Virus record (IMG/VR): IMGVR_UViG_3300037261_000179
Coordinates: 1 to 57,088 of that record
Direction: 5' to 3' (one strand)
DNA: 57,088 nt
Origin: a virus
Taxonomy: Duplodnaviria > Caudoviricetes
Shown one piece after another: positions 3,974-57,088 of this stretch (the stretch's first letter is position 1; the number at the start of each line of letters is the position of its first letter). Below the pieces are notes generated by a model. That model was not told the origin of the DNA, did not search any database, and saw nothing but the letters and a program-made list of their open reading frames with translations. The translations under genes were made by a program, and so were the position numbers.

Positions 3974-4164
3974 AGCGCTACCACAAATTTTATCCTATGA
4001 AAACCCTGCTAAAAACTGCCCTGCTCCTTGTTCTGATCACCTGCGCCACCGGCTTTCACGGTGGCCGGGAAGTCCGGGTCCCTGAACGCATCCACGTAGT
4101 CTCCGGCCAGCGCATCAATATCTGGATCGTGGTCTGGGTCACGATCTGGGCTCCGTACTGGTAA
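3970..4164 (+). CDS. Small hydrophobic, possibly exported protein
   Basis: MKTLLKTALLLVLITCATG signal-like segment if it starts at the second ATG. Confidence 0.5.
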   Translation: MKRYHKFYPMKTLLKTALLLVLITCATGFHGGREVRVPERIHVVSGQRINIWIVVWVTIWAPYW

Positions 4165-21296: not shown

Positions 21297-21336
21297 TACT
21301 TGACGAAATTCAAGTTTGACGGAAGCTGGCTTCACC

Positions 21337-22035: not shown

Positions 22036-22064
22036 GGCCCTTTGGCAGTTCAAAATTTTCCACC

Positions 22065-22757
22065 ATGAAACTCCTCCCCTTCGCCGTCATTTATGGCGGC
22101 CTGCTCAACACCAACGTCATTCTGTCCTCGCTGAACAACGTTCACACCGCGACTGTCGCCCAGCTGGCGCTGCAGATTGCGGAGGTGAACACGAACTACA
22201 GCTTGTACGGGTTCAACGCTTCGCCGGCCATTCCGTCGCTGCCTGCAATCCCGACCATGACATATACGGCTCCCCAGGCCATCGCGTACTTCCAAAGTCA
22301 GCCCAACACCACGAGCTACAATCACGGCCCTTCGACCAGTTTCCTGCTGATCGACGCCGACACGGCGAACGGGTTTGATGACCCGAACAACGCCCTGAAC
22401 GGCATCCTCACCGACGCCAACTTGGTGGCGATTTCAGCGGCGGCGCGGGCACTTCGGGCAAACATCACGACCCAGCCCACCGCTGCGGTCACGATCGCGC
22501 ACAACGCGAGCGGTAACCTCGGTACTGTGGTTGCCAGTGGAGCGGGCAATACCTTTCAGTGGCAGTACCGGCTCCTAGGCACCGGGGCTTGGCTCAACGT
22601 ACCGGCCACCGGGCCTTTCTCCAATGTGACCACGGCGACTCTCACGATTGCCAATCCGGTATTGGTCACCTACGACCAAACCGTTTTCCGGTGCGTGGTG
22701 CAGAGCACAGGCTCCGGTCCGGTGTGCTCCTCCAGCAGCACCCTCACGGTCACGTAA
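22065..22757 (+). CDS. Ig-like domain protein, paralogue 2
   Basis: Aligns end to end with the previous gene (MKxLPFAVIYGGxLNxNVxLSS, GPSTSxLLIDA, IAHNA, ITNP/IANPVLxTY). Confidence 0.75.
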   Translation: MKLLPFAVIYGGLLNTNVILSSLNNVHTATVAQLALQIAEVNTNYSLYGFNASPAIPSLPAIPTMTYTAPQAIAYFQSQPNTTSYNHGPSTSFLLIDADTANGFDDPNNALNGILTDANLVAISAAARALRANITTQPTAAVTIAHNASGNLGTVVASGAGNTFQWQYRLLGTGAWLNVPATGPFSNVTTATLTIANPVLVTYDQTVFRCVVQSTGSGPVCSSSSTLTVT

Positions 22758-32949: not shown

Positions 32950-34497
32950 TTATAGATTGTTCCTGGGCATGCTGGAAACTCCGCCGCCTCCACCCCCGCC
33001 GGTATTTTGGTATGCACCTGCCCCGTAGGGAACCGTCCAAGTAGCATCGGCCAAATCTGTCGTGAAGTAGGCCGAATTATTCACACCAGCCGCAATAACT
33101 GGCGATCCGGAATTTGGTTGATACGTCCCGCTTAAGTTCGGATTACTGACATTGAAATTTGCATCAAAGGCCGCTCCAAGCGCCTGCCAGCCGGCAATGT
33201 TGTAGAACACGCCGGCGGAGGTCGAACTCCATGCAAATTGACTTCCACCGCTCAGCCCGTAGCCAAAATTATTCGTTCCGTTGTAGACGACGGACGCATT
33301 GTACTGAACGATAACTTGGGTCGTTAGCCCGCTTGAAACGTTGTTGTTGACGTAATAGGTGTCACCTCCGCTTATGTCGATCATCGCCCCCGAGCCAACG
33401 CCGACCGCCGTATTATTGTAGACGCGAAATACCCCACCAATCGACGGGTAAGAATTCAAATACATGCAGCCGTTATTCGGTGCACCGCTGGAATCGACCA
33501 AGAAAAGATTGTCGTAAATCAACGCATCCTTGACCTGATACTGGATGAAGAGGCCAGTCGTGGCGTTCGCTCCGAAGCCCGGACCAATGACGTTGTGATC
33601 GTAAGTCACATTCTGCGCGTAGCCGGTGGACGGCAAATAACAGAAGGTGAAAAAGCCATCATGGTGCGAGCTGTCAATCGAGTCGTCCCAATTTTTCCAA
33701 TCATGGAAATAGCAGTGGTGGACGTGCATCCCTGAGAGAGTGGACGTGTTGTAGTGATTCCCCGCCCATCCGCAAATGTTGGTATTGTACGCCGTGCAAT
33801 AACTGTACTCCAAGTTCGTCGTGGTATTGTAGTCGATGTCGAAGCCATTGCCGCAATCTGAGAAAACGCAGTTCGTCACCAGGTCATTCCCATAGGAAGA
33901 GAGACCGCCATAATAAAGCAGGTGCACCGCGCTCGCGAGCGTGATCCCCGCCGGCGGATCATTCTGCGCCCGGACGTAAAGGTTTTTAACCACTAGATTC
34001 TTGATTATGATGTTTGAGCTACCAGCCATCCATATTCCGACAGAGTCCGATTGATGGGCCAGGCCGGTCCCGTTGGCCGTGTTTTGAATGAACCCGTTTG
34101 ACGTACCTGTCGCGCCATACCCGCCGATCATTCCCGTCGCCCCGCCGTCGATGGTGATATAGGACAGGTCCGCAAAGCTGATTGCTCCATAAGGACTCGG
34201 CCAGAGCGGGCTAGTGAAATTCGCCCCGGAGTCAAAAAGGATCGTAACCGGATTGCCCGAAGTCCCGCCGGCTTGTGGGGAAAAATTTGATGTGATCGTC
34301 CCTACGACATGGATCGTGTCCCCAGGGCTAACTTTTCCAGCGCCCGCGCCCCAGTTCGATGGGTTGTTTGCTTCGGTGACGCTCCATGGATTCCCGATTG
34401 TGCCATTGTGCGAACCGCTGCCAGACTGGGTGAAGTACAGGTCTTCGGCTTGTAATGTAACAAGCAGCGCGAAAAAACTAATTAAATATCTCAGCAT
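32950..34497 (-). CDS. Parallel beta-helix (pectin lyase-like) protein with a Sec signal peptide
   Basis: MLRYLISFFALLVTLQA signal; PGDTI, beta-helix Asn ladders, HHDG, C-terminal SPVIAAG...GAYQ. Confidence 0.85.
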   Translation of the reverse strand: MLRYLISFFALLVTLQAEDLYFTQSGSGSHNGTIGNPWSVTEANNPSNWGAGAGKVSPGDTIHVVGTITSNFSPQAGGTSGNPVTILFDSGANFTSPLWPSPYGAISFADLSYITIDGGATGMIGGYGATGTSNGFIQNTANGTGLAHQSDSVGIWMAGSSNIIIKNLVVKNLYVRAQNDPPAGITLASAVHLLYYGGLSSYGNDLVTNCVFSDCGNGFDIDYNTTTNLEYSYCTAYNTNICGWAGNHYNTSTLSGMHVHHCYFHDWKNWDDSIDSSHHDGFFTFCYLPSTGYAQNVTYDHNVIGPGFGANATTGLFIQYQVKDALIYDNLFLVDSSGAPNNGCMYLNSYPSIGGVFRVYNNTAVGVGSGAMIDISGGDTYYVNNNVSSGLTTQVIVQYNASVVYNGTNNFGYGLSGGSQFAWSSTSAGVFYNIAGWQALGAAFDANFNVSNPNLSGTYQPNSGSPVIAAGVNNSAYFTTDLADATWTVPYGAGAYQNTGGGGGGGVSSMPRNNL

Positions 34498-34498
34498 T

Positions 34499-35089
34499 TT
34501 AGTGAAATTTGAAGTTTACAGGACCGTAAGCGTGGTTGGCCCCACCCGTAGTGCCGGTGCTGCCACCGCCGGCGGCCCCGCCTGAATCGTAGCAGCCGTT
34601 ATCTACTGAGATAACTGCATTGGCCGTGACGCTCGTATCAGAATCGTAGAAGTGATCCACCCCCGTTGCCTCTACCGACATACAGCGATAGATCGTTGAG
34701 GCACTAACTGTGATTGGAGTGGCCAGAGTAACATAAACATAACCATCGGCATCCGCTGCATTACTCATGTTAATCGTGGCCGATCCATTCGTCACCGGCG
34801 CTCCAGCAGAGCCCGTATAAATTGCAACAAAATGCGAAGCTGAATCACCTGCTGCCTTATATCTGCCAACGGCTGTAATTACCTTGGACGCTCCTCCAAC
34901 CGTGAATTGAAATCCTGTGGCGAAGCCGCCGCCATCAGCCCTAAGTGTGCCGGGCGTCTGTCCGGTAATAACATGGGGATCGCCCCCACTGCCCGCCAAC
35001 ACCGTCTTGGAAGGGAAGCGCGCCGACTTGTAGGGCACCTGAGCGAAGATGCCGGTACAGAGGAAAATAAAAATGATTAGATTTTTCAT
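34499..35089 (-). CDS. DUF4082-like beta-sandwich protein with a Sec signal peptide
   Basis: MKNLIIFIFLCTGIFA signal; GFQFTV...ITAVGRY...YVTLATPITV...Y pattern. Confidence 0.7.
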   Translation of the reverse strand: MKNLIIFIFLCTGIFAQVPYKSARFPSKTVLAGSGGDPHVITGQTPGTLRADGGGFATGFQFTVGGASKVITAVGRYKAAGDSASHFVAIYTGSAGAPVTNGSATINMSNAADADGYVYVTLATPITVSASTIYRCMSVEATGVDHFYDSDTSVTANAVISVDNGCYDSGGAAGGGSTGTTGGANHAYGPVNFKFH

Positions 35090-35090
35090 T

Positions 35091-35330
35091 TTATGCTCCC
35101 GCAGAATCCGCCCATGTACCAGAATACCCCGTACCCATCTTAGCGATCCAATGGGCACCATCGCTCTCCATCGTTAGGTAATCACCAACTGCGCTTGTTG
35201 TATCTTGCAGGTAGTGATTGGCAGTCAGAGCGGTTGCGCCGTTGTAGGGCAGTTCAGCGTAGCCGGGGACTAGGTTGCCAGTAATCATTTTAAAGAGTGC
35301 GTCGGCGAGTGCTTGTTGGCCGGGGGTCAT
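35091..35330 (-). pseudogene. Probable C-terminal fragment of a fibre-like gene
   Basis: 79 aa ending in a fibre-like LTMESDGAHWI strand; no signal peptide; preceded by two aborted starts. Confidence 0.4.
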
Positions 35331-35400
35331 GGGAGCGCGGCGGCGAAGATAGGGGCAAGGAATGTTTCATGAGCTGGAGAGGAATAGGAGCGGGCGCATG

Positions 35401-37260
35401 TCAGTTAATCTTGATTGCTGAAATGCTCGCCGCTGAAACCGTTACTGATCCGGCGGAAGGAGTCGCAGTGACGGTGCCTTGTATACCAATAGTATCAGTT
35501 GTCTTGAGGGTATTGTATAAAGCTGTGAGTGTGACCGTCGGCCCGTTTGTCGCCAGAGTGGTCATTACCGGAATCTGGTCGCCGAAAATACTGCCGGACA
35601 AGTCGGCAGCCGTGTTATTCGTTCGGCGCAGTTTGTAATTCACGGAGGATGCCGTGGCATAGGTTGCGCCCACATAGCTCGTCTGAAGTGTGGCGGTGAT
35701 CAAGTATGTGCCAACTTCAGTCAGTGTTACGCTTGGACTGGTAGTGCCAAAAGTGACCGTGCCATAAGACCCCGTCAGGGTGTATGCCGTGCCCCCGGCA
35801 ACTTTGGTGTATGACGTTCCCGTTGCTATAGTTGATCCTGCCGCCATTGGTCCGGCCAGCAGCAAATTGGGACAACCTTTAAGACTGTAGATATTATTCC
35901 CCCCTGATGCCGAATCGTCAAACGCCGTATTGACGCAGTTTAAGAAAAACACCCCATTGCCGTTGCCGTATATTAGCGGGTACCAACCATTCTGTCCGGT
36001 ATTTGGATCGCTAAAATTGCAATTAAGAAAATAGAAATACTGGACGTTGGTATTAGTGAGGTCGCCAAAAGATATGGCGCCGGTAGCGGTCTTTACCGCC
36101 CAACAATTATTCAATACCACAACACCGCCGTTTGTTTTGGAGCTCAGGTCGCCAGCTGCACCAATTCCACAATTATTAATGGCAATAAAGTTTCCCACAT
36201 TGGAGGAACCACAGCTTAATTGACCAATGTTATTAATATCCTGCAATAAAATCGTCGGCATTTTGCCGGAGGACGTTGTCCCGATTTGTACGGCGGCATA
36301 GGCAAAGTTTATCAGGGATATGGCGTTGGCCGAAGCATCGACTGATTTAAAATCAGTCTGAAAATCTAATGCGGAGTTGGCATCACCAATCACTGTGATA
36401 GAAACCGGTCCGGTCATTCCAGTACCGACGGTCTTTTCAACGAACCAAACCGCCGCACCGCGAATATTAATAACGTGCGTGGTAGTTGAAGTGTTAGCAA
36501 AATTGAGCCTAAGCTGATACTGATTTCCAAGGGTAGTAGGTCCATCGTTAGCACTACCGTAGGCTCCCGATCCCCAGCCACAGATATAGATAAATTCATT
36601 CCAGCCCGTATTGGGCAAATCCATTTGGAAATAGCTGCCTTCGTTTGTGCCCGGTGTATCCAGAATAAAAATTGATCCAGCCGCGATGGATGAGGCATTG
36701 ACCGCATTGTAAGCAGCCAGCGGTGTTTTGAAGGATAAAAACGGGTTGCCAAGCACGGCAGTAGAGTCGTTGCCGTATTGATTGGAAAGATAGGCCACTA
36801 TTGCATTGTTTGTGATCGGAAGTGCTGCCCCCTGCTGCACGCCGACGACGGTGTAGGGGACGCCGGTGCCGGTGGGGGTGGGAGTAAAGGCCGCAGTACC
36901 CAACGTTCCTCCCGCTCCTATGTTAAGCGTACTCGCGTCCGTACCAGCAAGGGTCAGCGTATTTGAAAATGTCAGCGTCTTCGCGGCTGCTCCTGTCAAA
37001 GTAAAGCTACCGGCCGTAAAGGTGTTTCCATTGTATGTCGTGCTTGCCAGATTTTTGGTTGTCTTGTTGAAAGTAAACGTGGAATCTGCGGCGAAAGCCC
37101 CGGTATCGTTGAACTGAACCTGCGTACTGGACCCGCCGGGCGTACCACTACCCCCGCCCCCTGCCGACACAGATCCGATCGAAGCTGCGCCACCAGGATT
37201 TGACACACCGTCTCCAAACGCCAGCAACGGCAGAAATAAAAGTAAGAATAGCTTTTTCAT
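35401..37260 (-). CDS. Tail fibre-like protein with a Sec signal peptide
   Basis: MKKLFLLLFLPLLAFG signal; PGGSSTQVQFND.GAF fibre motif; AT-rich beta-helix-like middle. Confidence 0.8.
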   Translation of the reverse strand: MKKLFLLLFLPLLAFGDGVSNPGGAASIGSVSAGGGGSGTPGGSSTQVQFNDTGAFAADSTFTFNKTTKNLASTTYNGNTFTAGSFTLTGAAAKTLTFSNTLTLAGTDASTLNIGAGGTLGTAAFTPTPTGTGVPYTVVGVQQGAALPITNNAIVAYLSNQYGNDSTAVLGNPFLSFKTPLAAYNAVNASSIAAGSIFILDTPGTNEGSYFQMDLPNTGWNEFIYICGWGSGAYGSANDGPTTLGNQYQLRLNFANTSTTTHVINIRGAAVWFVEKTVGTGMTGPVSITVIGDANSALDFQTDFKSVDASANAISLINFAYAAVQIGTTSSGKMPTILLQDINNIGQLSCGSSNVGNFIAINNCGIGAAGDLSSKTNGGVVVLNNCWAVKTATGAISFGDLTNTNVQYFYFLNCNFSDPNTGQNGWYPLIYGNGNGVFFLNCVNTAFDDSASGGNNIYSLKGCPNLLLAGPMAAGSTIATGTSYTKVAGGTAYTLTGSYGTVTFGTTSPSVTLTEVGTYLITATLQTSYVGATYATASSVNYKLRRTNNTAADLSGSIFGDQIPVMTTLATNGPTVTLTALYNTLKTTDTIGIQGTVTATPSAGSVTVSAASISAIKIN

Positions 37261-37646
37261 TTGGAAACGGAGTCGTCGGTCGTGATGTCGAGAGTGACGG
37301 AGCCCCCGGCGGAGATGGCCACGTATGGTTTGGAACTCGCCCCCACGCCGTTAGGGAAAGTTTTAACCCATGCCGTACCCGCTTTTAGCAGGTAGCCTGT
37401 CGTTGTGGTCGGATCGGTGCCGGTCGGAGTTGTGGAATTTGGAAAGGTACTCCCCCCGTCAAACGAAAGCCTCACATCCACCGAGCCCGTGTTCTGGACA
37501 GTCACCTGACGGCAATCCGGGCCAAAGGTGATAATAGGCGTCGCCGTTGAGAGCGTACCCGTCACCTGCTTGATGGTGGCGCTCGCGGAGAGCGTGAAGG
37601 CAAGGCACAAGGCCGCCGCAAGAAAGAATCGTAGTGTGTTTTTCAT
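37257..37646 (-). CDS. Small beta protein with a Sec signal peptide
   Basis: MKNTLRFFLAAALCLAFTLSASA signal; VTVQNTG...V...F.G......GYLLKAG pattern. Confidence 0.8.
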   Translation of the reverse strand: MKNTLRFFLAAALCLAFTLSASATIKQVTGTLSTATPIITFGPDCRQVTVQNTGSVDVRLSFDGGSTFPNSTTPTGTDPTTTTGYLLKAGTAWVKTFPNGVGASSKPYVAISAGGSVTLDITTDDSVSK

Positions 37647-37653
37647 GGTAAAA

Positions 37654-40600
37654 TTAGTTGTTGTTGAGCTTGATTGATGGCGTACCGTGGCCGCCATCCG
37701 CAATTGAAAGCCCGTCCATCGAAACGTTGTTAGTAACCTTGGTCGGAGCTGCAGTGTAATCCGTTATGATGTAATTGCCTCCGCTCGCTTGGCTGCTCAC
37801 CGTCCCAACAATCGCCGTGTTGGTCAGAGTCACCGCCGAATTGGGCACGAGCCGAACACTTTCGTTGTTCGATGCGGAAAGCAGGTTGATGCTGTTACCG
37901 ATCAGCTTAAGCCCATTCCATGCGGTAGGACTTGAAATGTCGGTTCCGGTGTCGATGCCGCGGCAGAACTGCGCCCGGCCCTGGCTGAGATGGCAGCCCT
38001 CAACTGTAAGGTTTTGCCAGTCGGCAATGACGAGGCAGGAACCGGACGCGATGTCGTCCACATCGGCCTTGATCGTGCAATCAGTTGAGTTCACGAACCA
38101 GATCCCGTGACCGCCGCCGACCGTGCTGGAATTGCGCACCTTGACGTTCAGCAATTTCACCCGCGTATTGCGCGTGCTGGAGTTTATCTCCCCACGGACA
38201 CCGGACTGTTTCACGGTGTCAATGTTCACGCCGTTGACGAGAACGTCAGTATCGCCCGCCAGCCAGATGCCTCGTCCCCAAGTAGAAGCTGGAGCGATAT
38301 TGCAGGCCGTGGTGTTAGCGATGCCGCTTGTCCCGGTGCCACCGCTGCCAAGATAGGTCACCGGTAGGGTCGTCACACTGCCCGAATGCGTCGCGCTCCC
38401 GCTCATGGTGAAGGTCTGATAGTTGGTCAGGCGCGTTGCAGACACGTTCACCACGACGATATTGCCCGAGACGAGACCGGAATAAACCGATGCCAGAGAA
38501 AAGCTGTTTGAATCAGTATCGTTTATATAAATGTTTGTGGCACTTGAGGGCGTAGCGTTGTTCAGGCGAAATGTTCCACTGGCCGGGCTGCTGGTCGTAG
38601 TCGTGCTGAAGGCGTAGGAAGGCAGATAATCGTTTGGGGAGCCACCCGCGCCGTTGGCCGTCGTCAGGCACTGCCCGTAATCCCGTGAACGGACAAGTCC
38701 GCCCTCCACGGTGATGTCAGTCGAAGTGTCGATCCCGTAACCGTCATCGTCCTGCCCCACCAGATGGCAGTTATAGACGGTGCCTCGAGTGCAACCGCTC
38801 AGGTGAATTCCATCGGCGTAACAAACGGAAGTACTGATATTGTTCAGACGCACATCAGTCGCATTGACTGCGAAAATGGCGAATTCCCCCGAATGTTTTA
38901 TTTCGACATCGTGCACGTAAGGAAAGGAGCCCTGTAACTGCAAGGCATGAGCTCCGGTCGTCCGCGCCGTGCATCCGCCATCGACCGTCAGATTGCAGAT
39001 TGTGATATGGTCGGTGGTCGTATCGGTCTTGATGGTCTGGCCTGGCGAGATGCCTTGCAAAATAGTTACACCAACTCCATCACCGCAGATCGTGGTATTA
39101 CTGTGCCCGGTGAACGTGACGAGGCCGGCGGTAGCTGTGTTGAACACATAGTTGCCGGCCGGGAAATAGAGAATTCCGTAGTTGGCAGGCAGCGCAGAAA
39201 CGGCAGCTTGGATCGCTGTGGTATCGTCTGAACCGTTGCCCAGCGCCCCATAGTCCTTCACGTTGATCGTCAGATTCAGATTTGCTTTCCCCGTGCGCTG
39301 ATGCGCGAGTGTGTCAAAGGCAAGAGTATCGAGGAATTTGACAGAGAAAATTGGATTCCCAGAACTCGAGGTAAGCGAGATTGTTTCCGTGGTCCCGCCA
39401 ATTCCAAAGATCATATTTGGAGCAGCGCCGAAAGCACGGAGCGAAAACGAGCTTTTAGCATAGCTTCCACTTGCCCCGGAAGCATCCGTAAAAGAAAGTG
39501 TCCCCGTGTCCAGCTGGCTGGAGGTAGAAGTCACACCGATATGAATAGCCCCATTGATTGTCTCAGTACCGATAAACGTTTGGGAAGCATCCGTCCGCGC
39601 AATTGTCGCCGCCGCATCTGGGAAGGTGAAAGCTCGCACCGCCGTCAAGCCCGTCGCGGAAAAGAAAGCCGAGTTTGTCCCTCCATTCGCTGGGGGCAGC
39701 ACCCCTCCAACGTCAGTCGTCAGATTAATCTTAGCCAAGGAAGCCGGAGACGAAATCGCAATAGTCCCGTCTGCCGCCGCCCCTGTGTGCAAAACCTGCA
39801 CGAGAAAAGAAGTAGTCGTAACCGGGGCTGTTGAAGTGAGCGCCCCCGACGTGCCTAGGTAGTACTGTGTGTTTGCCGCCAAACTCGAAATTACATTCTC
39901 AAACCCACTCATGGTCACCGTGAACGGGTTTCCTGTCCCCGTTACCACGCCGTCAACAACCGCCGTGCCAGACGCAGCATTGTCTGATAAAACCCAAGCC
40001 GACCCATTGTTGAACACGCACTGGCCAACGGTGAAACTGTTGGCCTGCGACACGGCGCGGGTTACCGACGTGCCCGTACCACCCCCGCCACCGTTCCCAA
40101 GAGCGCTCACCACCTGAAAGTTGGTTCCATCATAAGCGACGACCACAACTTGCCCTGCACGAATATCATTCGCCGCCAAATCCGTATTTACCCCACCGAC
40201 CGCCTTTTTGAGAGTCTTGGCCCCGAGAGCATTGATATTCAAAGTCGAAGCCGACGTGTTGGCGTTGGCCGCCACAAAAGTATAGAGAGGCGTGCCCGTG
40301 GTATAAGTGGTGATCGCAGGAGCCAGCGTCATCACGTAGGTATTCGTGGAGCCTGAATCCGCCACGTACGTTGCTTGGTAGGAATCATCCGAAAGCATCC
40401 AACGGCTGTTCACCAGCTTCAATCTCGCGCTGTGGTTTCCTGCAGGCCCTGGCGTGTAAACTCCGCCCGCAATTGCCACATCCGGGTCCCCCTCTCGAAA
40501 GACACTCGCCCCTGAAAATGTCACCGTGGACGTTGCGTTGCACCCTTGGAAATAAAGCATAAAACTATCGCCATTCACCGCAGACGGAAGGGAAACACCT

Positions 40601-42354
40601 GTCGTTGTCCCGTTCACGAACGTCAGGAAAGAAATTTCCTGCCCGACGGAAGCGGAATTTCCCACCCCCGTTGTCCCGGTAATCTGCGGAATCGTGAAGC
40701 CGTTGCTGAAAGTCTGATGCCCTGTGAAAGTCTGAGCGGCGTCCGTGCGTGCGAGAACTGAATTTGTCGTGGGAAAAGTATGACTCGTCCCATCCGTACC
40801 GCTCAACGTCAGAGAATTGGTAAAGTTCAGTGTCTTGGCCGCCGTACCTGTCAGCGTGTACGACCCGGCGGTAAAGGTATTTCCGTTGAGCGTCGGCACT
40901 GCCACCGCTCCGGCAAACGTGACCGCTTTGGTCGATCCCACCATATTGACCACGGCATTGTTTTTTCCGTCGTAAACGTTGAAGTCCCGGAACTGGGTCG
41001 TACCTCCGTTGTACCCGTCGAAATTGACGTTCACCGACCCGTTGGCGTTGGTGGTCGTCTCTGCGATCTGGTTGGTCTTCAGAACCAGATTGGCGGCAAA
41101 AGTATTCCCCGTGTTTGTCAGCTGTGTGACACTCGCCACTGCCGGGGTCGTCTGCCCCAAGGTTCCGTTGAAAACTCCGCTGTTGATTGTCTGCGAAGTG
41201 ATCGTAGCCGGAATGGAAAAAACATTTCCTATGAGCGCCAGATTTGTTCCCGCCGTATAGCTGGAAGCGGCGCCGAATTGCGCAAAGATAACCGGATCTG
41301 TCCCGAGAACCGTAGGCGCAGTCTGGATCGCCCAACTGGTGTTCTTGTTGACCGATCCCCCGCTCACGAAATACAAGTATCCCACCTTAAGTTGAGCCGC
41401 AGTGTTCGAATCCGAAGCCCTGGACCACGCGCCGGCAGCACTCACGTAGATACCGTTCTGAGAAGTAGTCGATTGGTTTATCACCGCCACGCGCGAAGCA
41501 CTGGTCGTGAAAGTGTCAATCGTCTGCTCCCCGGACAGCGTAATGTTCGCTGTCGTAGCCACGGCAACACCTGTGCGCTGTGTGATACCGGCAGAGACGG
41601 AAGAAAGGTCTGTAAGCCGCGCTGCATCGTATGGGTTCACCGGAGCCGGAAGTCCCGTGATTGTCACCGCATTCATGGTCCCGCCGGTCACTGCGATCGC
41701 TGACGAGCTTTGCGTGGCGAGGCTGTTGAATGTCCCCACTGCCGCACTGGTGAGCCCCGGCGCAGAAGTGACACCCGCGTTTAGAGCTGACCCTGAAAGA
41801 GTCCCGGCCGCCGCCGTCACTGTGATATTGGAAGTGCCGTCGAACGTCACACCGTTTATCGTCCGGCCGGTCTGCAGCGCCGTAGCGGTACTCGCATTCC
41901 CCGTAAGACTGCCGGTAACAATTCCAGTCATATTGCCAGTAAGGTTGCCCGTTACATTACCGGTCAACGGCCCAAAGAAAACACCCGTAAAATTGCCCGC
42001 CGTGTACGTCCCGTTGGCAATCCCAATCCCCGACATGTCCATAGATGCCGGAAACGACAAAGTTACGTTACCACCAACAGTCAAAGAATTTATCTGGTTG
42101 GGAGTACCGGAAACAGAAAAACCAGAATTGGAACTCAAGGGTACCCATTGTCCGTCCCCGCGGAGAAAAGTGAGCGACGACGGGCTGCCTCTTCCCAACA
42201 TTGCTCCCGGGAAAATGGCCGACCCTCTTACGACTGAAGCGTTCACCGTCATGGTCCCATCAATCGTGGGGTTGTGGATCTGAGCCCTCACTTTTCCAGG
42301 AGCCCCGCTAACCAAAACCAAAAATGCGAAAAGTAGTCGAAAAAATGATTTCAT
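37654..42354 (-). CDS. Long tail fibre/tailspike with a C-terminal pectate-lyase-3-type beta-helix and a Sec signal peptide
   Basis: MKSFFRLLFAFLVLVSGAPGKVRA signal; TFLRGDGQW, GNASTATALQTGRTINGVTFDGTSNI, ATTANITLSGEQTID...NGIY fibre modules; NVKDYGALGNGSDDTTAIQAA...YFPAGNY. Confidence 0.88.
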   Translation of the reverse strand: MKSFFRLLFAFLVLVSGAPGKVRAQIHNPTIDGTMTVNASVVRGSAIFPGAMLGRGSPSSLTFLRGDGQWVPLSSNSGFSVSGTPNQINSLTVGGNVTLSFPASMDMSGIGIANGTYTAGNFTGVFFGPLTGNVTGNLTGNMTGIVTGSLTGNASTATALQTGRTINGVTFDGTSNITVTAAAGTLSGSALNAGVTSAPGLTSAAVGTFNSLATQSSSAIAVTGGTMNAVTITGLPAPVNPYDAARLTDLSSVSAGITQRTGVAVATTANITLSGEQTIDTFTTSASRVAVINQSTTSQNGIYVSAAGAWSRASDSNTAAQLKVGYLYFVSGGSVNKNTSWAIQTAPTVLGTDPVIFAQFGAASSYTAGTNLALIGNVFSIPATITSQTINSGVFNGTLGQTTPAVASVTQLTNTGNTFAANLVLKTNQIAETTTNANGSVNVNFDGYNGGTTQFRDFNVYDGKNNAVVNMVGSTKAVTFAGAVAVPTLNGNTFTAGSYTLTGTAAKTLNFTNSLTLSGTDGTSHTFPTTNSVLARTDAAQTFTGHQTFSNGFTIPQITGTTGVGNSASVGQEISFLTFVNGTTTGVSLPSAVNGDSFMLYFQGCNATSTVTFSGASVFREGDPDVAIAGGVYTPGPAGNHSARLKLVNSRWMLSDDSYQATYVADSGSTNTYVMTLAPAITTYTTGTPLYTFVAANANTSASTLNINALGAKTLKKAVGGVNTDLAANDIRAGQVVVVAYDGTNFQVVSALGNGGGGGTGTSVTRAVSQANSFTVGQCVFNNGSAWVLSDNAASGTAVVDGVVTGTGNPFTVTMSGFENVISSLAANTQYYLGTSGALTSTAPVTTTSFLVQVLHTGAAADGTIAISSPASLAKINLTTDVGGVLPPANGGTNSAFFSATGLTAVRAFTFPDAAATIARTDASQTFIGTETINGAIHIGVTSTSSQLDTGTLSFTDASGASGSYAKSSFSLRAFGAAPNMIFGIGGTTETISLTSSSGNPIFSVKFLDTLAFDTLAHQRTGKANLNLTINVKDYGALGNGSDDTTAIQAAVSALPANYGILYFPAGNYVFNTATAGLVTFTGHSNTTICGDGVGVTILQGISPGQTIKTDTTTDHITICNLTVDGGCTARTTGAHALQLQGSFPYVHDVEIKHSGEFAIFAVNATDVRLNNISTSVCYADGIHLSGCTRGTVYNCHLVGQDDDGYGIDTSTDITVEGGLVRSRDYGQCLTTANGAGGSPNDYLPSYAFSTTTTSSPASGTFRLNNATPSSATNIYINDTDSNSFSLASVYSGLVSGNIVVVNVSATRLTNYQTFTMSGSATHSGSVTTLPVTYLGSGGTGTSGIANTTACNIAPASTWGRGIWLAGDTDVLVNGVNIDTVKQSGVRGEINSSTRNTRVKLLNVKVRNSSTVGGGHGIWFVNSTDCTIKADVDDIASGSCLVIADWQNLTVEGCHLSQGRAQFCRGIDTGTDISSPTAWNGLKLIGNSINLLSASNNESVRLVPNSAVTLTNTAIVGTVSSQASGGNYIITDYTAAPTKVTNNVSMDGLSIADGGHGTPSIKLNNN

Positions 42355-42374
42355 GCTACCCGGACACTACGCAC

Positions 42375-42420
42375 AATACTTTCCTTTGCTCAAGTATTTT
42401 CCAAACGTCAAATACTTACC
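42375..42420 (-). promoter_or_regulatory. 18-bp-period motif upstream of the fibre operon
   Basis: GGTAAGTATTTGACGTTT-GGAAAATACTTGAGCAAA-GGAAAGTATT on the - strand. Confidence 0.7.
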
Positions 42421-42936
42421 TCATGGGAAAATTATGAACCCGACTTGTCGCGTTCCGGCAGAGGGCAACGCACTCCCATCCACGTTGTATATCATAAATT
42501 GTGCCACCGTTTTAAGGGTCAGAGGGTTCGCCCAGTCGTACGCTGCCACCATGATGCTTGGCAGGCTATCTTGCGGCACACCAAGAGCGGCGGAAGGTTT
42601 AGACCCGAGCTTCATTCCTGAAATGTCCACTCCATAAAGGAAGGATGTGAGCCCGCTGGAGTTGAGGACTGCCATGTCCAATAGCAAAGAGTAGGCTTTT
42701 GGGGGAGGAGTGACAAAATTCGGAAACTGTACCACAGGGGTATTAGTCGCCCTGCCCCCACGCGTCACTGCCGCGGCCGGTGCTGCAGCTTGTGCTGTGC
42801 TGTAGACAGACCGAAGCGCCTGGGCCACTTCCCTGGACCACTTCTTTACAACACTCTCCACCTTGGCCGCGTCAGAACCTATTGGTACGCCCGCCGGGTC
42901 TGGATAATCATTCACCACCAATGGATTCAAGGACAT
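42421..42936 (-). CDS. Putative tail accessory protein
   Basis: Coupled to the nozzle gene; synteny only. Confidence 0.6.
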   Translation of the reverse strand: MSLNPLVVNDYPDPAGVPIGSDAAKVESVVKKWSREVAQALRSVYSTAQAAAPAAAVTRGGRATNTPVVQFPNFVTPPPKAYSLLLDMAVLNSSGLTSFLYGVDISGMKLGSKPSAALGVPQDSLPSIMVAAYDWANPLTLKTVAQFMIYNVDGSALPSAGTRQVGFIIFP

Positions 42937-45353
42937 CAGTACGTCCCCCCAAGTCGCCCCATGAGGTGCATCCGAGAAACTCTCCAGCCACAGCCTACTT
43001 GGCTACTGGAAACCCTGATGCGCATATACCGACCAGTCCGCCTGATATTCACTTTTGCAACCCGTTGCTCCCCACTTTCAATGGGTAAAACAACTGGGTT
43101 TGACCATACCAAATCATCCCCCAAATTCATCCGTGACCCAAGTTGAACTTCTATCACGTAAGGGTTCACCTGAACTGCCATCGCTACAGCTTCCAGCGCA
43201 ACAGTGAGCGTGTCGGAATACTTGACCGACAAAGGATCACCGTCGGAAAAATCCCCCGTCTCGTACAAGCAAGCCATCGCATTTCCATCCCGATCAAAAC
43301 CTTGGTTGAGAAGCGCGAGTGTCGGACGATCAACGGAATTGTTGTGCTGAAACCCGGCCACCGTAAAGTTCTGAGCGCCTGAGCTCAAAATATCCTCCCA
43401 AAGCGCGTCCACCGGCCAAGACACAGGAGCTGACCACGTTCCTCCTGCGAAAGCGAATGTCGGGTTTGGGCTGAGGTTCAGCCTGCCAAACGCCGTAATC
43501 CCGTGGAGAACCAGATTCGCATGGGCGCTCGGATCGTAGTCGTCCGTCGTGCATGAATCCTCCACGTAGTTGTAAATGAAAACTCGATAAGGTGCATCGT
43601 TTGCAGCCGTACCAGCCACCGGGTACGCAAACCACACTTCGAAATCCTTTTCGTTGTGGTATCCTACAATTTCATCGACCCGGGTCAGATCGAGCTCTGC
43701 GAATACCTCCACCGCATGCTGGCGCCCAACTGGCTGAAGTTGCGATCCTCCGATATAGCGGTAAATCTCCCGGTTTCCGAAAAGGAAGATTTGCCCGATC
43801 CCCACTTTCACAAAGGAGTACTTCCCGATCAAGCCTTCGTCGATTACCTCTGTTCGTAGAAAAAATACCCCCTGGTCAAGCCCAACGTACTGAATGGACT
43901 GGATCGACCGGTTTTTGAAAATGTACGCATAGTCCCCCAACGTTTCCACCCACCAAAGAGGACCGTTGATAAACGCCCCAGCGTTCACCAATTCCCCGGC
44001 CCCGTTGGCATCAACGGACAGGATTGTGGTACCGATCGGTACTACCGTGGTGGCTGGCGCCGCCCCCGTCAGCTGGCTCACCGTCCCCTTGAAAGCGAAA
44101 AGTTCCTGCAGCGTGCCACCCATCGCGCTTATGTCGATCGACCCCGACGCGTTGTGCAGGCTCACAAAAGGCTGGGGAACGATAAACTCCCCTGCAAAGT
44201 GGGTTGATAGCGAGGTACCACTATTCCCCGTGTATGCCAAATTCACTATCCCGTCGGCGTAGTCTATTCCTGTAACGATATAAACGTCATTGCCCGCAAA
44301 AAGGTTAGGCCCGATGGAAATGTGTGCCCCCAACCCAAAAGGAAAAAGCCCCTCCACTTGGATAGTCACGTTCCCGCCAGGTGCTGGAATGGTAAAATCC
44401 GCTGCCAACGTACAGGCATTTGTCCCCGGATCGAAAGCGTCAGAATTGACTGTAAGAATGATGCTCGGGTTGTTGCTGAAATAAACCATTCCTCCCGCCT
44501 TGTAGGGAATGAAATCACGGATGAAAACTTCCCGGTCCCCGCCGGCCGGAACTGTTTGCGGAAAGCCTGTAACGTTCCCCACCTGCCCGGTACTTGGAAG
44601 AACATCGGTCACGCTCAGATACGTAACGTACCCGTTCAGATCAAAACGCATGAACTGCCCGATGGCGAGCAGCGCCGCCGTGGAGGAATCCACGTATACC
44701 CACTCAGTCTTAACGCCTACCGCCGGGACCGAAAAAGTTTGCAATGTTTTGAGCAGCGCCGATGTGGCCGTCGCCCCGACCGGTATCCATTCAAACGCAT
44801 CCCCCGTTGCACACCATTTGAGGGTGCTACCTCCCCAGATCAAAACATAATCCCGAAATGTCGTCACGCCCTGCCATGCCAGCAAGGGATCAAGCCCAGG
44901 CAAAAGCTTAGCCGCGGCGCTCACTCCGTCCCAGTAAACCATGGGTGATCGGGGCTGGGCAAAAATCACCTTGTCGAAAAAACTTGTAGCAACGATCCTG
45001 CTCCGGGCATTGGCCAAATTCGAAAGATAGTCATAAAGCTGAGTAAGTACCACATGCTTCGGGTCAGACGGAGAAAAAAGGCTGTAGAGCTTTCGCTGCG
45101 TGCCGATGATCCCAACATTTTGGGACGGTTGGTAAAACTGCGTCTGGTAGATCAAATTCGCCGGGGACTCGAGATTGGGCGACTGGACCAAAGTGACAAA
45201 CCCCATGGCGTTCTTTGCCACCCCTTTCTCAAAACGAACATTCGACGCCACCGTGGCGGCGCGCGGATCAATCTCGTCTGGACTGATACGGGTAACCTGC
45301 CCCAGAGTCGGAGCCACAATCGCAACTTCGAATCCGTCTGAAGCACGGCGCAT
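42936..45353 (-). CDS. Tail nozzle/stabilisation protein (P22 gp10 / T7 gp12-like)
   Basis: 805 aa, beta-rich; ASNVRF at the N-terminus and GRYMRIRVS at the C-terminus; follows the adaptors. Confidence 0.75.
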   Translation of the reverse strand: MRRASDGFEVAIVAPTLGQVTRISPDEIDPRAATVASNVRFEKGVAKNAMGFVTLVQSPNLESPANLIYQTQFYQPSQNVGIIGTQRKLYSLFSPSDPKHVVLTQLYDYLSNLANARSRIVATSFFDKVIFAQPRSPMVYWDGVSAAAKLLPGLDPLLAWQGVTTFRDYVLIWGGSTLKWCATGDAFEWIPVGATATSALLKTLQTFSVPAVGVKTEWVYVDSSTAALLAIGQFMRFDLNGYVTYLSVTDVLPSTGQVGNVTGFPQTVPAGGDREVFIRDFIPYKAGGMVYFSNNPSIILTVNSDAFDPGTNACTLAADFTIPAPGGNVTIQVEGLFPFGLGAHISIGPNLFAGNDVYIVTGIDYADGIVNLAYTGNSGTSLSTHFAGEFIVPQPFVSLHNASGSIDISAMGGTLQELFAFKGTVSQLTGAAPATTVVPIGTTILSVDANGAGELVNAGAFINGPLWWVETLGDYAYIFKNRSIQSIQYVGLDQGVFFLRTEVIDEGLIGKYSFVKVGIGQIFLFGNREIYRYIGGSQLQPVGRQHAVEVFAELDLTRVDEIVGYHNEKDFEVWFAYPVAGTAANDAPYRVFIYNYVEDSCTTDDYDPSAHANLVLHGITAFGRLNLSPNPTFAFAGGTWSAPVSWPVDALWEDILSSGAQNFTVAGFQHNNSVDRPTLALLNQGFDRDGNAMACLYETGDFSDGDPLSVKYSDTLTVALEAVAMAVQVNPYVIEVQLGSRMNLGDDLVWSNPVVLPIESGEQRVAKVNIRRTGRYMRIRVSSSQVGCGWRVSRMHLMGRLGGTY

Positions 45354-45362: not shown

Positions 45363-46019
45363 TCAGGTCTTGACGATTTTGTTCATGCCCAGGGAAGGCT
45401 GCAGCAAGGACATTGCGGTCCCGGTCGCCCCGTACGTCGTGCTCACTGGCGCCCCCGTTCCAGATGGTACCGTGTTACCCCCGTGCGACAAAGTGGGAAG
45501 CTCCGACGTAGCGATCACATGCGTCTCCGCACCAGTGGAGCGCCCCAAGGTCCACGCAGTCGCCCCACTAGCCGAACCCGTACCCAAACCAACTGAAACC
45601 CTGCCGCGGAAATCAGGCAGCCCGAAAGTGGTCGTTCCGTTTCCGCCGTAGGTCGTGCCGAACAACGCCGCCAAGGCCGGGTAGGTAGCAATCAAAGGCG
45701 TGCTCCCGTCACAGATAAGCCAGCCAGTCGGTGCCGCAGATGCTCCGTAATCAACAATCATTCCTGGAATCAGTGTTGCTGGTGTTGCCCATGTGGGCGG
45801 AGTACTTACCCCGGCGGAAGTATAAACGGTTCCCGCTGCCCCGTATGGTGTCGTGACTGGATTCGGAATCGCCGTGGACTTCAGAGTCCCGTCCGTCAGA
45901 TTGAAACTGACTGTGAGAAAATCAATGATCTGCTGGACAAAAGCCCGAAACGTCGCCGGCCACGAAGCGATCGTCGCGTTGTCGAGCGGCTGGGTAGGGT
46001 CGAAGGGGGTGAGTGACAT
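45363..46019 (-). CDS. Tail collar domain protein
   Basis: PGMIVDYG...PTGWLICDG...YPALAALFGTTYGGNGTTTFGLPDFRGRV. Confidence 0.9.
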   Translation of the reverse strand: MSLTPFDPTQPLDNATIASWPATFRAFVQQIIDFLTVSFNLTDGTLKSTAIPNPVTTPYGAAGTVYTSAGVSTPPTWATPATLIPGMIVDYGASAAPTGWLICDGSTPLIATYPALAALFGTTYGGNGTTTFGLPDFRGRVSVGLGTGSASGATAWTLGRSTGAETHVIATSELPTLSHGGNTVPSGTGAPVSTTYGATGTAMSLLQPSLGMNKIVKT

Positions 46020-46021: not shown

Positions 46022-46723
46022 TTAGAATCCTCCAAAGCGCATCGTGCGTCCACGGGTTGCCCGCGACGCGTCATCCGCAGATGCTTGTGCAAAGTAGCCG
46101 GCGAATCCACCAGGCTTGCCGTTGATCATGGCCGTTGCCTCGTTCTTGGCCGCAATGGAATCCTCATCCGCTCCAAGCGAGTACATCAAAAATTTCGTAA
46201 ACTCCAAAACCAGCATGGGATACTTTGCCATCAGGTCATTTTCATCCGTTGGCAGCACAACCGGGGGAAGAAAACTGTAGGTGTCCAGATTGAAATTGGT
46301 GTCCGGCGGAAGTGTACCCATCGTCAAGGGCCCGGGGAAATTCACACTCCAGATTCCGGCCGGACTTTGTTCCAAAAATGCCGTGCGCTCGGAAACGTTG
46401 GTGCCTATCTGCTGCAAGCGGTTCACTTCTTGGCGGGTGAAAATTCTCCAGATGCTATTCCCAAAAAAGGCTGTCGAGCTGGCGGAAAGAGAATTGGCCC
46501 CGCTCTGCAGTTCCTTGAACGTCGCGGGCAGCGCGTACGCGTAGGGCCCAGGGCCGGTCACCGGCAGAATAAACTGCAGCGGCACCTTCATGCAGTTCCA
46601 CGAGCGCCGCTGCTGGATCTGGTTCAACGCCTCGTTGATCAAAATAGGCAGCGTCCCAAGCCACGGCTCCTGCGCCGAAGAAAGCCCCACCGCGGCCAAG
46701 GCTGATATGGTCTGGAGGTTCAT
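46022..46723 (-). CDS. Head-tail adaptor/ring protein, paralogue 2
   Basis: INEALNQI...YALPATFKEL...YP pattern. Confidence 0.7.
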   Translation of the reverse strand: MNLQTISALAAVGLSSAQEPWLGTLPILINEALNQIQQRRSWNCMKVPLQFILPVTGPGPYAYALPATFKELQSGANSLSASSTAFFGNSIWRIFTRQEVNRLQQIGTNVSERTAFLEQSPAGIWSVNFPGPLTMGTLPPDTNFNLDTYSFLPPVVLPTDENDLMAKYPMLVLEFTKFLMYSLGADEDSIAAKNEATAMINGKPGGFAGYFAQASADDASRATRGRTMRFGGF

Positions 46724-47358
46724 TCTTTTTCAGGTCGAAGGGCCGCCGTCGCCCGCTTGACATCAACCCCCGTGAGTTGCTGGAACTCGGTTAGAAACTG
46801 CATCTCGTGCAGTTTGTAAACCGGATCGTTGATCGACTCAAAGGCCAGGGACCTAGCCTTCAAGCGCACCAGATTGAAATAACGACTGACCAGCGGATTG
46901 GTCACTGTGACAGTTGGGTCGTCACAATTTGCCGGAAGCGCGAAGTAGTAGACCGTGAGCGTGTGGATAGCCGTCGCCGGAACCGCCAGATCAAGGTAGT
47001 AGTTTTGCGCTCCCCCCGTAGCATCCTGCGTATAAATGAACGAGTAGGGCGGGACCAACCCAGCACCCAAAAGCTTTTCGACCTCTGAGCGGATGAACAC
47101 GGGCGCAAGGGCATTCAGTACGGAATCAAACACGGGATACCGCCCATTCTGCAGTTCCTTAAAATCTGCCGGGAGCGTGACCCGGGTCTGCCCGATTGCC
47201 ACCGAGGCCGGGCCGATCGCCTTCATCTCGGCAAAGGAATGCTTCTGCGCAATATCCCGGACCGCCTGGTTGGCGAAATCCAAGTAGGACGAAAAAAGGT
47301 CATCCCGGTTTACCGTGATGTCCAGATCGTTGATCAGCCCTTGGAAATCGTTGCCCAT
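46720..47358 (-). CDS. Head-tail adaptor/ring protein, paralogue 1
   Basis: RDDL....DFANQA...LPADFKEL...YY...TNPL pattern. Confidence 0.75.
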   Translation of the reverse strand: MGNDFQGLINDLDITVNRDDLFSSYLDFANQAVRDIAQKHSFAEMKAIGPASVAIGQTRVTLPADFKELQNGRYPVFDSVLNALAPVFIRSEVEKLLGAGLVPPYSFIYTQDATGGAQNYYLDLAVPATAIHTLTVYYFALPANCDDPTVTVTNPLVSRYFNLVRLKARSLAFESINDPVYKLHEMQFLTEFQQLTGVDVKRATAALRPEKE

Positions 47359-48134: not shown

Positions 48135-49343
48135 TCAGGTGGTGATCAGCTGAAGGTTGTAGGCGTGACCGAAGGCATTGGCGAACTTGAGTTTCATGCC
48201 GAGTTTGGCGCGGAACTGCTCCTGGTAAGCATCCTGACCACGGGTCTGGATGTTCCGTTCGAGGAACAGGGGTTCCATGGTCTTTTGGACCAAGTTTGGC
48301 ATGTCGATCACGAACATCGAAGCCTGGTAGGCCGCCATCTCCTGCAGGAGGGGATGGAAGGTCATTTCTAGGATGCCGAAGGGCGTCACAATGGTCGTGA
48401 TGTTCATACCGAACACCGTCTCATTGTTCATGATCCGGAAGCCGGCCGCCGCCGTGTTGGCGTAGTCGGACAAAGCCGAATACGCGAGCGGGCCACAGAG
48501 GGCGATCTTCTGGTTGGAACCGAAGACCATGAAGCTGCGCAGCCATGCCTTGAAGTTGGCCAAGGTGCAACCGCCGGCACCGTTGCCGTTCAGGATGTTG
48601 GTCGAGGATAGGCCGGCGCGCTGGATCGCATCACGAATGCCGCCGGTCTGGTAAATGTACCCGTTGGTGCCGACCAACCGGTTGCGGCGGCCGAGCAGGA
48701 ACGCTTTCTCGATGTCCCCACAAATCTTTTCGAGGGCGTAAATGCGCCGTTCACGCAGGGGCCCTTCCATGTCGGACCGGAGCACCGTGCCCTTAAAGGC
48801 GTTGGTGAGGAAGATCGAGCTGTTGAATGTCTCGATGAAATTCTTGAGCTCCTGCGGATTCTCGTACACCGCGCGGGTGGGGAGCGAACCTTCCTCGGCG
48901 GAGACAAACAGGCGGCTCCAAAGATCGGCGTTGTTGATGGCCGCGGCAGTCGTGCCGGCATGACCACGTTCAACGGCGACGGAAGCGCTGGTCGGGTCGG
49001 CCGTAACGCGGACGTACTCACCGGTCCGGGAATTTTCGATCACCGTGTTGAGGGACAGGCCCTGCCACACATTGTTACCCGAGCCATCATCGAAGGTGAG
49101 GGTCGTAACGCTGGAAGTGAAGGCAGCGTTGGAGTAGTAGTTCTGACGGACCGGATCACGCTCGAACCAGTTGTACTCGGTGGATTCGGCATTCTCCTTG
49201 CGGAGCATGGTCATCAACGCAAAGAGAACGGCACCTGAGCCTATCCCCTTGGCGTGACGTACAGTTACGTGCTGTTGCCATTCGCCAGTCAAATCATCCG
49301 TGTCGGCGTTTTGTACGCTAAGTAAGCCAGAAATTAAGGACAT
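48135..49343 (-). CDS. Major capsid protein (SU10/DUF5309-like)
   Basis: 402 aa after the scaffold; YNWFE, EEGS, N..E.F, DIEKAFLLG, TGGI, TPFG motifs; strong codon bias. Confidence 0.88.
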   Translation of the reverse strand: MSLISGLLSVQNADTDDLTGEWQQHVTVRHAKGIGSGAVLFALMTMLRKENAESTEYNWFERDPVRQNYYSNAAFTSSVTTLTFDDGSGNNVWQGLSLNTVIENSRTGEYVRVTADPTSASVAVERGHAGTTAAAINNADLWSRLFVSAEEGSLPTRAVYENPQELKNFIETFNSSIFLTNAFKGTVLRSDMEGPLRERRIYALEKICGDIEKAFLLGRRNRLVGTNGYIYQTGGIRDAIQRAGLSSTNILNGNGAGGCTLANFKAWLRSFMVFGSNQKIALCGPLAYSALSDYANTAAAGFRIMNNETVFGMNITTIVTPFGILEMTFHPLLQEMAAYQASMFVIDMPNLVQKTMEPLFLERNIQTRGQDAYQEQFRAKLGMKLKFANAFGHAYNLQLITT

Positions 49344-49396
49344 AAAAGAAGGTAGTTTGAGTTTTTTACTGGTTGAACTGCTGTAAGCGAAACTCT

Positions 49397-49435
49397 AATA
49401 CTTTCCATCTGTCAAATACTTTCCAAATGGAAAGT
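49397..49435 (-). promoter_or_regulatory. Repeat/palindrome motif upstream of the capsid gene
   Basis: AATACTTTCCA direct repeat 18 bp apart; ACTTTCCA-AA-TGGAAAGT inverted repeat; contains TTGACA on the - strand. Confidence 0.75.
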
Positions 49436-56994: not shown

Positions 56995-57053
56995 TTATTG
57001 ACACTTGGCAAGTGAGTTGATAAGTGGAAACTATTTGACGGATGGAAAGTCTT
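56995..57053 (+). promoter_or_regulatory. Array of 18-19-bp-period TTGAC/TGGAAA units at the right end
   Basis: 57025-57053 matches the reverse complement of 49397-49425 at 26 of 29 nt. Confidence 0.7.
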
Positions 57054-57088
57054 TTACTAGGGGTTTTCTCTAGAGGCTTTCGGCCCTA

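Follow-up and report, generated by a model that had tools for sequence, protein, structure and literature searches.

The cytoplasm is regarded as the place where the fibres of tailed phages fold and attach. Here we describe five genes (g1–g5) of the virus contig IMGVR_UViG_3300037261_000179, which would encode fibre- and tailspike-type proteins that each open with a basic, hydrophobic, small-residue leader of the kind associated with Sec export. The window, meaning the whole stretch of DNA that was analysed, is the entire 57,088-bp contig of an SU10-like podophage with its structural arm on the minus strand. The five genes are co-oriented on that strand, 3' of the nozzle gene. An initial annotation had reported five intact, co-oriented, leader-bearing genes in the fibre position, and all of these open reading frames (ORFs) and leaders are present as it described. 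Their positions, with that of a further small ORF lying among them, are as follows.

37654–42354, minus strand: g1, 1566 aa.
37257–37646, minus strand: g2, 129 aa from its ATG, with an in-frame open TTG 19 codons upstream.
35401–37260, minus strand: g3, 619 aa.
35091–35330, minus strand: 79-aa ORF without a leader, candidate coding, in the 310-nt gap between g3 and g4.
34499–35089, minus strand: g4, 196 aa from its ATG, with an open ATG 24 codons upstream.
32950–34497, minus strand: g5, 515 aa.

In g1, g3 and g5 no possible start lies between the upstream stop and the leader ATG, and in g2 and g4 use of the open earlier start would merely extend the basic N-terminus. The genes are tightly packed, each starting no more than 8 nt from, or overlapping, the stop of the preceding gene, g4 being the exception. 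The 79-aa ORF has no family match and no counterpart in any locus compared.

Leaders were scored with a hand-written rule (not SignalP), which asks for a positively charged n-region, a hydrophobic stretch of 7–18 residues and small residues at positions −3 and −1. Across 65 greedily called ORFs of the window the six best scores belong to g1–g5 (4.68–5.13) and to a lipoprotein-type gene at 32072–32539 (5.03). A seventh ORF reaching at least 4.4 is a small early one at 3970–4164 on the plus strand (4.44), and the next best scores 3.77. The capsid, portal, nozzle, collar and both adaptor proteins score at most 2.91 or not at all, which bears out the initial observation that these proteins have no such leader. 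The g1–g5 leaders have a net charge of +1 or +2, a core hydropathy of 2.5–3.0 and a hydrophobic stretch of 10–13 residues, and in all five the small residues at −3 and −1 come 2–6 residues past the hydrophobic core. Read by eye, none of the five contains a twin-arginine motif or a standard lipobox; the predicted cut leaves glutamine at +1 in g1 and g4. By this rule all five conform to the pattern of a Sec leader cleaved by signal peptidase I. The background of the rule, taken in other viral contigs from genes of at least 200 aa at a distance of four or more genes from a cluster of this kind, is only 10 in 160 (about 6%), so that five adjacent positives are unlikely to reflect chance.

The behaviour of the leaders among homologues is that of signal peptides. 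In the g1, g2 and g5 families the leader sequences vary, yet they stop exactly at the onset of the conserved mature sequence. For the g5 family, leaders ending at the conserved motif are present in 43 of 47 loci from IMG/VR. One of the other four carries its leader on a split N-terminal piece (L049), one is cut at its 5' end (L013), and two (L029 and L040) are truly leaderless, because the preceding gene ends right at their start and leaves no room upstream. In a protein collection, 28 of 50 g5 homologues begin, as called, with a strict leader, and in five (P0007, P0010, P0014, P0020 and P0051) a methionine stands directly at the conserved mature motif, with no leader before it. In the g1 homologues P0055 and P0172 the hydrophobic leaders are unrelated, the A-Q junction is invariant and the start of the mature protein is conserved, and the g2 homologues of loci L060 and L061 both have leaders that end before a conserved IKQVT motif. 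Homologues of g1, g2 and g5 keep their leaders. Leaderless g1-like proteins also occur (P0058, P0062, P0064, P0072, P0073, P0075, P0077 and P0092), although these come from protein calls, some of which may be truncated. In a subfamily of g1 relatives (P0054–P0089; L058–L061, L067 and L068) a domain of about 150 residues lies at the N-terminus right behind the leader, and the same domain is also found on collection members without a leader; the two kinds of member could possibly serve as a matched pair for studying the role of the leader.

A further indication comes from cysteine content. The mature g1–g5 proteins contain 31 cysteines in 2929 residues (1.06%), whereas ten virion proteins of this phage that lack a leader have 13 in 5144 (0.25%). 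At the other loci the cysteine count is even in 68 and odd in 29 of the leader-bearing proteins, against 105 even and 126 odd in the rest. The initial annotation had proposed export across the inner membrane, to supply either the virion or the host envelope. The export half of this proposal gains support from the variable leaders, the conserved junctions, the leaderless homologues, the roughly fourfold cysteine content and the DUF4082-type domain of g4 described below. From these sequence features we regard Sec export of g1–g5 as highly probable, and comparative evidence gives good support to the core proposal, in which Sec exports g1–g5 but not the other proteins of the virion arm. Folding of the five proteins would then probably take place outside the cytoplasm, the compartment in which the particle is assembled.

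Two other explanations of the leaders can be weighed at this point. The first is that there is no export, the hydrophobic starts being chance stretches, mis-called starts or cytoplasmic N-terminal helices. Here the scoring rule matters, being hand-written and untrained, as does the lack of a Shine-Dalgarno motif, which marks no start in the window genome. A public collection moreover holds g1 (as P0053) as a 1462-aa product starting from Met105, with the leader lost, and true starts downstream of the leaders had been named in the initial annotation as a way in which it could fail. This call is countered by the homologues P0055 and P0172, in which the leader and residues 25–104 are conserved in kind, the conservation of residues 25–104 arguing against a start at Met105. 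With five adjacent positives against a background of about 6%, an upstream ATG that is the first start in g1, g3 and g5, a g1 leader conserved together with the next 80 residues and leaders kept in 43 of 47 g5-family loci, we consider the absence of export very unlikely. One consequence of such public gene calls is that surveys using them would undercount leader-bearing fibres.

The second is that the proteins are exported but their leaders stay uncleaved. The leaders would then be signal anchors holding the fibres on the outer side of the inner membrane, for example as a platform for assembly or for the timing of lysis. The hydrophobic stretches of 10–13 residues with a basic start would suit such a role, and the open upstream starts of g2 and g4 would lengthen the basic region. 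Against it, small residues stand at −3 and −1, 2–6 residues off the core, in all five proteins; the junction is conserved among homologues when the leader is not; and leaderless homologues begin exactly at that junction. Tethering is accordingly improbable, and cleavable signal peptides are the preferred reading of the leaders.

The five mature proteins are of phage fibre type to differing degrees. g1 consists of a leader of about 24 residues (predicted cut A/Q), shaft repeats, a shared module and, from about residue 1030, a pectate-lyase-type beta-helix. It matches phrog_27782 (1.4e-20) and phrog_17264 (1.7e-17), gives tblastn matches to annotated tail-fibre genes, and reaches 26.1 bits with Pfam Beta_helix against a cut-off of 25.9. 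The shared module, about 160 residues within approximately 226–600, is present in many annotated tail fibres and in some head-decoration proteins, and 62 of the 69 non-truncated ORFs retrieved with it are classical leaderless fibres. A conserved asparagine triplet at the C-terminus is found in the g1 family only. g3 has a leader of about 16 residues, a Gly/Ser-rich start, a fibre module in common with g1 and a C-terminal knob at residues 481–619 (around 35401–35850 in the window), modelled as a TNF/C1q-like jelly roll with a predicted local distance difference test score (pLDDT) above 90. In a VIA fold comparison the knob gives Z 13.6 with a bacterial TNF-like lectin and 11.6 with a cyanophage short-tail-fibre domain, and its neighbours in BFVD include C1q-domain phage proteins. 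The knob family comprises 1633 representatives at E ≤ 0.001 and 601 at E ≤ 1e-10; the knob is always C-terminal, in proteins of 146–1758 residues of which roughly half bear leaders, and among the best 150 of the 601 a strict leader is present in 66, with many others plainly leaderless. The initial claim that the two largest genes carry fibre modules is borne out by these results, for g1 through the family, tblastn and Beta_helix matches and for g3 through its fold and shared modules.

The remaining three are less readily named. g2 shows 44–46% identity by tblastn to the ORFs lying directly 3' of leader-bearing fibres in L060 and L061, and its closest Atlas clusters are small viral proteins. 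g4 combines its leader with a DUF4082-type (PF13313) beta-sandwich, scoring 25.8 bits with Pfam, below the cut-off of 28.4, and with an Atlas feature score of 0.95 to DUF4082 clusters; its structural neighbours bear PEP-CTERM, TIG or Por_Secre_tail domains, and by these matches the domain appears to be of a kind typical of exported or surface (extracytoplasmic) bacterial proteins. In g5 a 17-residue leader runs straight into a conserved body of beta-helix type, for which no solved-structure relative was found by sequence. By eye, no shared C-terminal sorting motif could be made out among 100 leader-bearing proteins of other loci.

The bacterial relatives of g4 and g5 raise a further alternative, that the cluster is a passenger cassette of bacterial surface-protein genes acquired by the phage, with no part in its infection cycle; the block is also absent from L003, the nearest relative in which the corresponding slot can be seen. 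Yet g1 is made of phage fibre modules, g2-type proteins come only from viral clusters, and like clusters occupy the same place in many viral contigs. Lysogenic conversion is unlikely as well, since no integrase was found among 50 window ORFs scanned against Pfam and the phage encodes its own polymerase and helicase. We thus hold a passenger cassette to be unlikely.

The recurrence of these clusters is considerable. At loci with g5 relatives, large leader-bearing genes stand two to five in a row, all co-oriented, and over 32 loci leaders are present in 27 of 37 adjacent co-oriented genes of at least 200 aa, compared with the 10 of 160 distant genes given above. At the leaderless loci L029 and L040 the neighbours are leaderless too (0 of 2 with a leader). 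In this count 8 of 40 distinct loci were scored as negative for the focal gene; a wider search for starts found leaders in several of these, and the only verified leaderless focal loci are L029 and L040. As judged from these counts, a leader-bearing fibre cluster is present in dozens of other viral contigs and is not peculiar to the window phage.

The position of g1–g5 within the structural arm is best seen from the genes that precede them.

54161–55780, minus strand: terminase, by family matches.
51010–53277, minus strand: portal, Pfam SU10_portal at 42.6 bits against a cut-off of 30.
48135–49343, minus strand: capsid, Pfam SU10_MCP at 88.5 bits against a cut-off of 24.1.
46022–47358, minus strand: two adaptor-like genes, SU10_adaptor.
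45363–46019, minus strand: Collar-domain protein, 218 aa, without a leader.
42936–45353, minus strand: nozzle-position protein, 805 aa, phrog_3287.
42421–42936, minus strand: p171, leaderless, 171 aa, N-terminus matching the fibre anchor of relatives.

The adaptor gene at 46720–47358 reaches 41.4 bits with SU10_adaptor against a cut-off of 27, the second adaptor-like gene only 20.3. After the nozzle gene come p171, the five leader-bearing genes, a small hydrophobic protein, a lipoprotein, a class 3 lipase and further small genes. The arm ends with three large leaderless proteins of 282, 437 and 1629 aa (the first and last being p282 and p1629), which by position and homology are assigned as internal or ejection proteins.

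Nozzle homologues were found only in L001/L054, L002, L055, L056 and L003/L057, and the fibre slot is visible only in L003 and L002, where the nozzle gene is followed by just one leaderless fibre gene, encoding over 900 residues. In L003 the order is nozzle, a 939-aa leaderless anchor-bearing fibre and then directly the homologues of p282 and p1629. In the window the anchor lies on the separate p171 and is followed by about 12.5 kb of extra sequence (29918–42354) ahead of the ejection genes. The first 45–70 or so residues of p171 match the N-terminal anchor region of the relatives' single tail fibre, with a BLASTP E value of 3e-9 to the N-terminus of the L003 fibre and a tblastn E value of 1e-7 to residues 3–93 of the L002 fibre. 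By these alignments the anchor motif of the lineage is found on p171 and not on g1–g5. The beta-helix region of g1 has two short stretches in common with the body of the L003 fibre. A read-through product of p171 and g1 was considered, the two being in the same frame, and rejected because two stops (TGA and TAG) lie between them. A predicted complex of three copies of p171 with three copies of g1 residues 25–170 scored 0.00 in both runs, which, being without controls, bears neither way. The initial annotation had seen the entire host-recognition set as exported; this goes too far, as the leaderless Collar-domain protein at 45363–46019 and the anchor-bearing p171 at 42421–42936 remain.

Directly downstream of g5 lies a cassette resembling those used in lysis.

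32552–32860, minus strand: small hydrophobic protein, holin-like with a membrane character judged by eye only; no family match.
32072–32539, minus strand: lipoprotein-type, 155 aa, with a cysteine after ...FVAG.
31341–32111, minus strand: class 3 lipase without a leader, Pfam Lipase_3 at 76.4 bits, phrog_21992.

The same region (30980–32860) also holds a single-pass membrane-like protein. An ORF 33% identical to the lipoprotein stands in the same position in L060, the order of leader-bearing cluster, lipoprotein and lipase recurs in L060 and in L006, which has a different capsid family, and a lipase homologue is also found downstream in L067.

The cassette brings in the most serious alternative, namely that g1–g5 are exported but never enter the virion, acting free in the periplasm or envelope together with the downstream lipoprotein and lipase. 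By cutting or binding surface glycans they might let progeny get away without sticking to debris, or they might block superinfection. On this account the leaderless Collar-domain protein and p171 could serve the virion instead, and it would sit well with the recurrence of the cluster-lipoprotein-lipase order in L006 and L060 with other capsid types or layouts, with the commonness of DUF4082 and the g5 family among exported bacterial proteins, and with the lack of an anchor domain behind the leaders. The 50 window ORFs scanned against Pfam also contained no recognised endolysin family, so the attack on the envelope may be an unusual one. Free enzymes, however, have no need of a 1000-residue shaft or a trimeric adhesin knob, Sec alone reaches only the periplasm and not the cell surface, and the genes fill exactly the slot of the relatives' virion fibre. 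We consider a free-acting role a real possibility, though somewhat doubtful.

A further point against a free-acting role is an upstream motif that g1 has in common with the capsid gene. Three tandem 18-bp units of a GGAAAGTATTTGAC-like motif lie at 42371–42420 on the minus strand, directly upstream of g1, and further copies lie at 49393–49424, upstream of the capsid gene, and at 57026–57057, near the end of the contig. With up to three mismatches the motif has 13 matches against 3.85 expected, a number reached in 0 of 100 shuffles. This distribution suggests that the motif may be regulatory and that g1 and the capsid gene may be expressed together late in infection. A scan of 29500–43200 for promoters and terminators gave 9 and 13 sites respectively, against 8.6 and 15.1 in shuffles, and because these counts are near the shuffled level no operon boundaries can be drawn from them.

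The reading that we prefer brings these observations together as follows. The five genes would constitute a single late module whose products, proteins of fibre and tailspike type, are synthesised with cleavable Sec signal peptides. These products would be threaded across the inner membrane of the host, lose the leader to signal peptidase I and then fold in the periplasm, with g1 (shaft and beta-helix enzyme), g3 (TNF-like knob fibre) and g5 (beta-helix) as the distal host-recognition and glycan-cutting proteins and g2 and g4 as their small partners. The DNA-filled particle would bear p171, a leaderless stub that retains the fibre anchor motif of the relatives. As the particle is built in the cytoplasm, exported g1–g5 can meet it only when the inner membrane is breached, and they would therefore join particles at lysis. 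Late attachment is favoured because of the virion-fibre build of the proteins, their place in the fibre slot and the anchor left on p171. What can be read directly from the sequence is that leaders are present and conserved in kind, that the domains are of fibre type and that anchor and bodies are divided; we infer the export, the cleavage, the periplasmic folding and, above all, the late attachment to the virion. The whole chain, from export through cleavage and periplasmic folding to attachment at lysis, is plausible but held tentatively, as falling rather short of probable. A more general scheme of two-compartment assembly, with head, tail core and p171 made in the cytoplasm, the whole distal receptor-binding and depolymerase set exported by Sec, trimmed, folded in the periplasm and added once the membrane is breached at lysis, and the leader acting as an evolutionary switch that whole fibre modules jointly gain or lose, is possible but speculative.

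Several observations weigh against late attachment, and some against export itself. No recognisable tail-docking anchor domain follows the leader in g1, g3 or g5, the leader giving way at once to shaft repeats, a Gly/Ser-rich stretch and the beta-helix body respectively. Beyond about 70 residues p171 has no relatives, a search for homologues of near its length returning only p171 itself, and its single-sequence fold has a mean pLDDT of 34. As it has neither relatives beyond this point nor a confident fold, p171 may be a dead remnant. Relatives keep the leaderless Collar-domain protein at 45363–46019 with 53–54% identity, so that the virion need not use the exported set. The g4 domain and the g5 family are also bacterial, in contigs of up to 3.7 Mb, and the lysis-like cassette adjoining the cluster in a recurring order fits an envelope role too. 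By reasoning alone, attachment after lysis would have to compete with dilution. As to export, an even cysteine count is found in only two of the five mature proteins of the window, and the untrained rule and the Met105 call belong here too.

The rest of the genome gives little guide to the host. No close cultured phage was found, the capsid matching six records at 21–27% identity, and g5 and g3 have no match among 50,697 phage records. A scan of genome contigs with the g5 family gave three loci, one in a Patescibacteria bin and two in Solirubrobacterales bins, which names no host; the missing Shine-Dalgarno motifs and the glutamine at +1 in two of five leaders are hints only. There are no tRNA genes in the window. 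Apart from the leaders already described, the only other strong leader of the genome is the lipoprotein-like one of the small early ORF on the plus strand (3997–4164 here, 3970–4164 as scored above), which could be a lipoprotein of the superinfection-exclusion type. Other early genes on the plus strand encode a pentapeptide-repeat protein (1241–1894; 107 bits), a GAAD adaptor domain (2523–3227; 27.3 bits) and an APS-kinase-like protein (5901–6335; 42.3 bits), and two adjacent paralogues (239 and 230 aa) that resemble each other at the N-terminus and match no family lie at 21316–22757, also on the plus strand.

If the export of fibres proves to be routine, the textbook pathway would need an extracytoplasmic assembly step. 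The host-range determinants of many environmental phages would then be missed by annotation, and by predictors of receptor-binding proteins, that discard leader-bearing proteins; some "auxiliary" genes for glycan degradation in soil and water viruses would call for a fresh reading, and phage engineering would have to preserve the export route. In PMC6199706 the lack of a signal peptide even serves to argue that a protein is of phage origin.

Phage proteins that use the Sec machinery of the host are known in other settings. Sec-exported and signal-anchor-release endolysins do so but are not parts of the virion. In the filamentous phages the coat proteins pIII and pVIII, the receptor-binding protein among them, are exported by Sec and assembled at the membrane into particles with no head or tail; export of the receptor-binding protein is thus common to these phages and, as proposed, the window phage, which has both a head and a tail. 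For Porphyromonas phages PMC10367356 describes genes whose products have predicted Sec signals, cleavage of which would in some cases expose a glutamine, as in g1 and g4. These are read there as a capsid protein, its signal presumably removed by the prohead protease, as spanins and as unknown envelope modifiers, and the term "tail fiber" is absent from that text. Full-text literature searches turned up no published account of Sec leaders on the tail fibres of tailed phages, although the supplements of PMC10367356 and PMC11924767 may list leader-bearing genes; the text of PMC11924767 contains none of the terms "signal peptide", "tail fiber", "tailspike", "mass spectrometry" and "structural protein".

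The closest counterpart for export itself is cellular. The mosaic adhesive trimeric (MAT) fibres of Bdellovibrio combine a Sec signal peptide, a long phage-like trimeric fibre and an adhesive end, and all have a beta-rich domain of about 130 aa behind the leader, as described in PMC10769870; they are encoded by cellular genes of a predator. The g3 knob superposes on the C-terminal domain of the MAT protein Bd2734 with Z 9.8 and a root mean square deviation of 2.9 over 118 residues. The likeness is one of the g3 C-terminal fold only, and the window genes lie in a phage genome, in the fibre slot. The Sec-led MAT fibres nevertheless indicate that phage-like trimeric fibres can fold after export.

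In the branched adaptor-plus-tailspike systems of SP6/K1-5, CBA120 and G7C all parts are leaderless and assembly is cytoplasmic. The window would resemble these systems, judged from its genes alone, in having a short anchor-bearing protein followed by several anchor-free tailspike-like proteins. The leaderless podophage fibres and tailspikes of L003, L001/L002 and SU10 (the last as given in PMC9509320) stand in the same post-nozzle slot and are built from the same kinds of module, namely shaft repeats, a pectate-lyase-type beta-helix and a trimeric knob. They differ in that they start with a cytoplasmic anchor which docks on the adaptor or nozzle, whereas in the window the anchor is on p171 and the signal peptides are on the bodies. 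The single leaderless anchor-fused fibre of the relatives, set beside the separate anchor and leader-bearing bodies of the window, offers a natural comparison.

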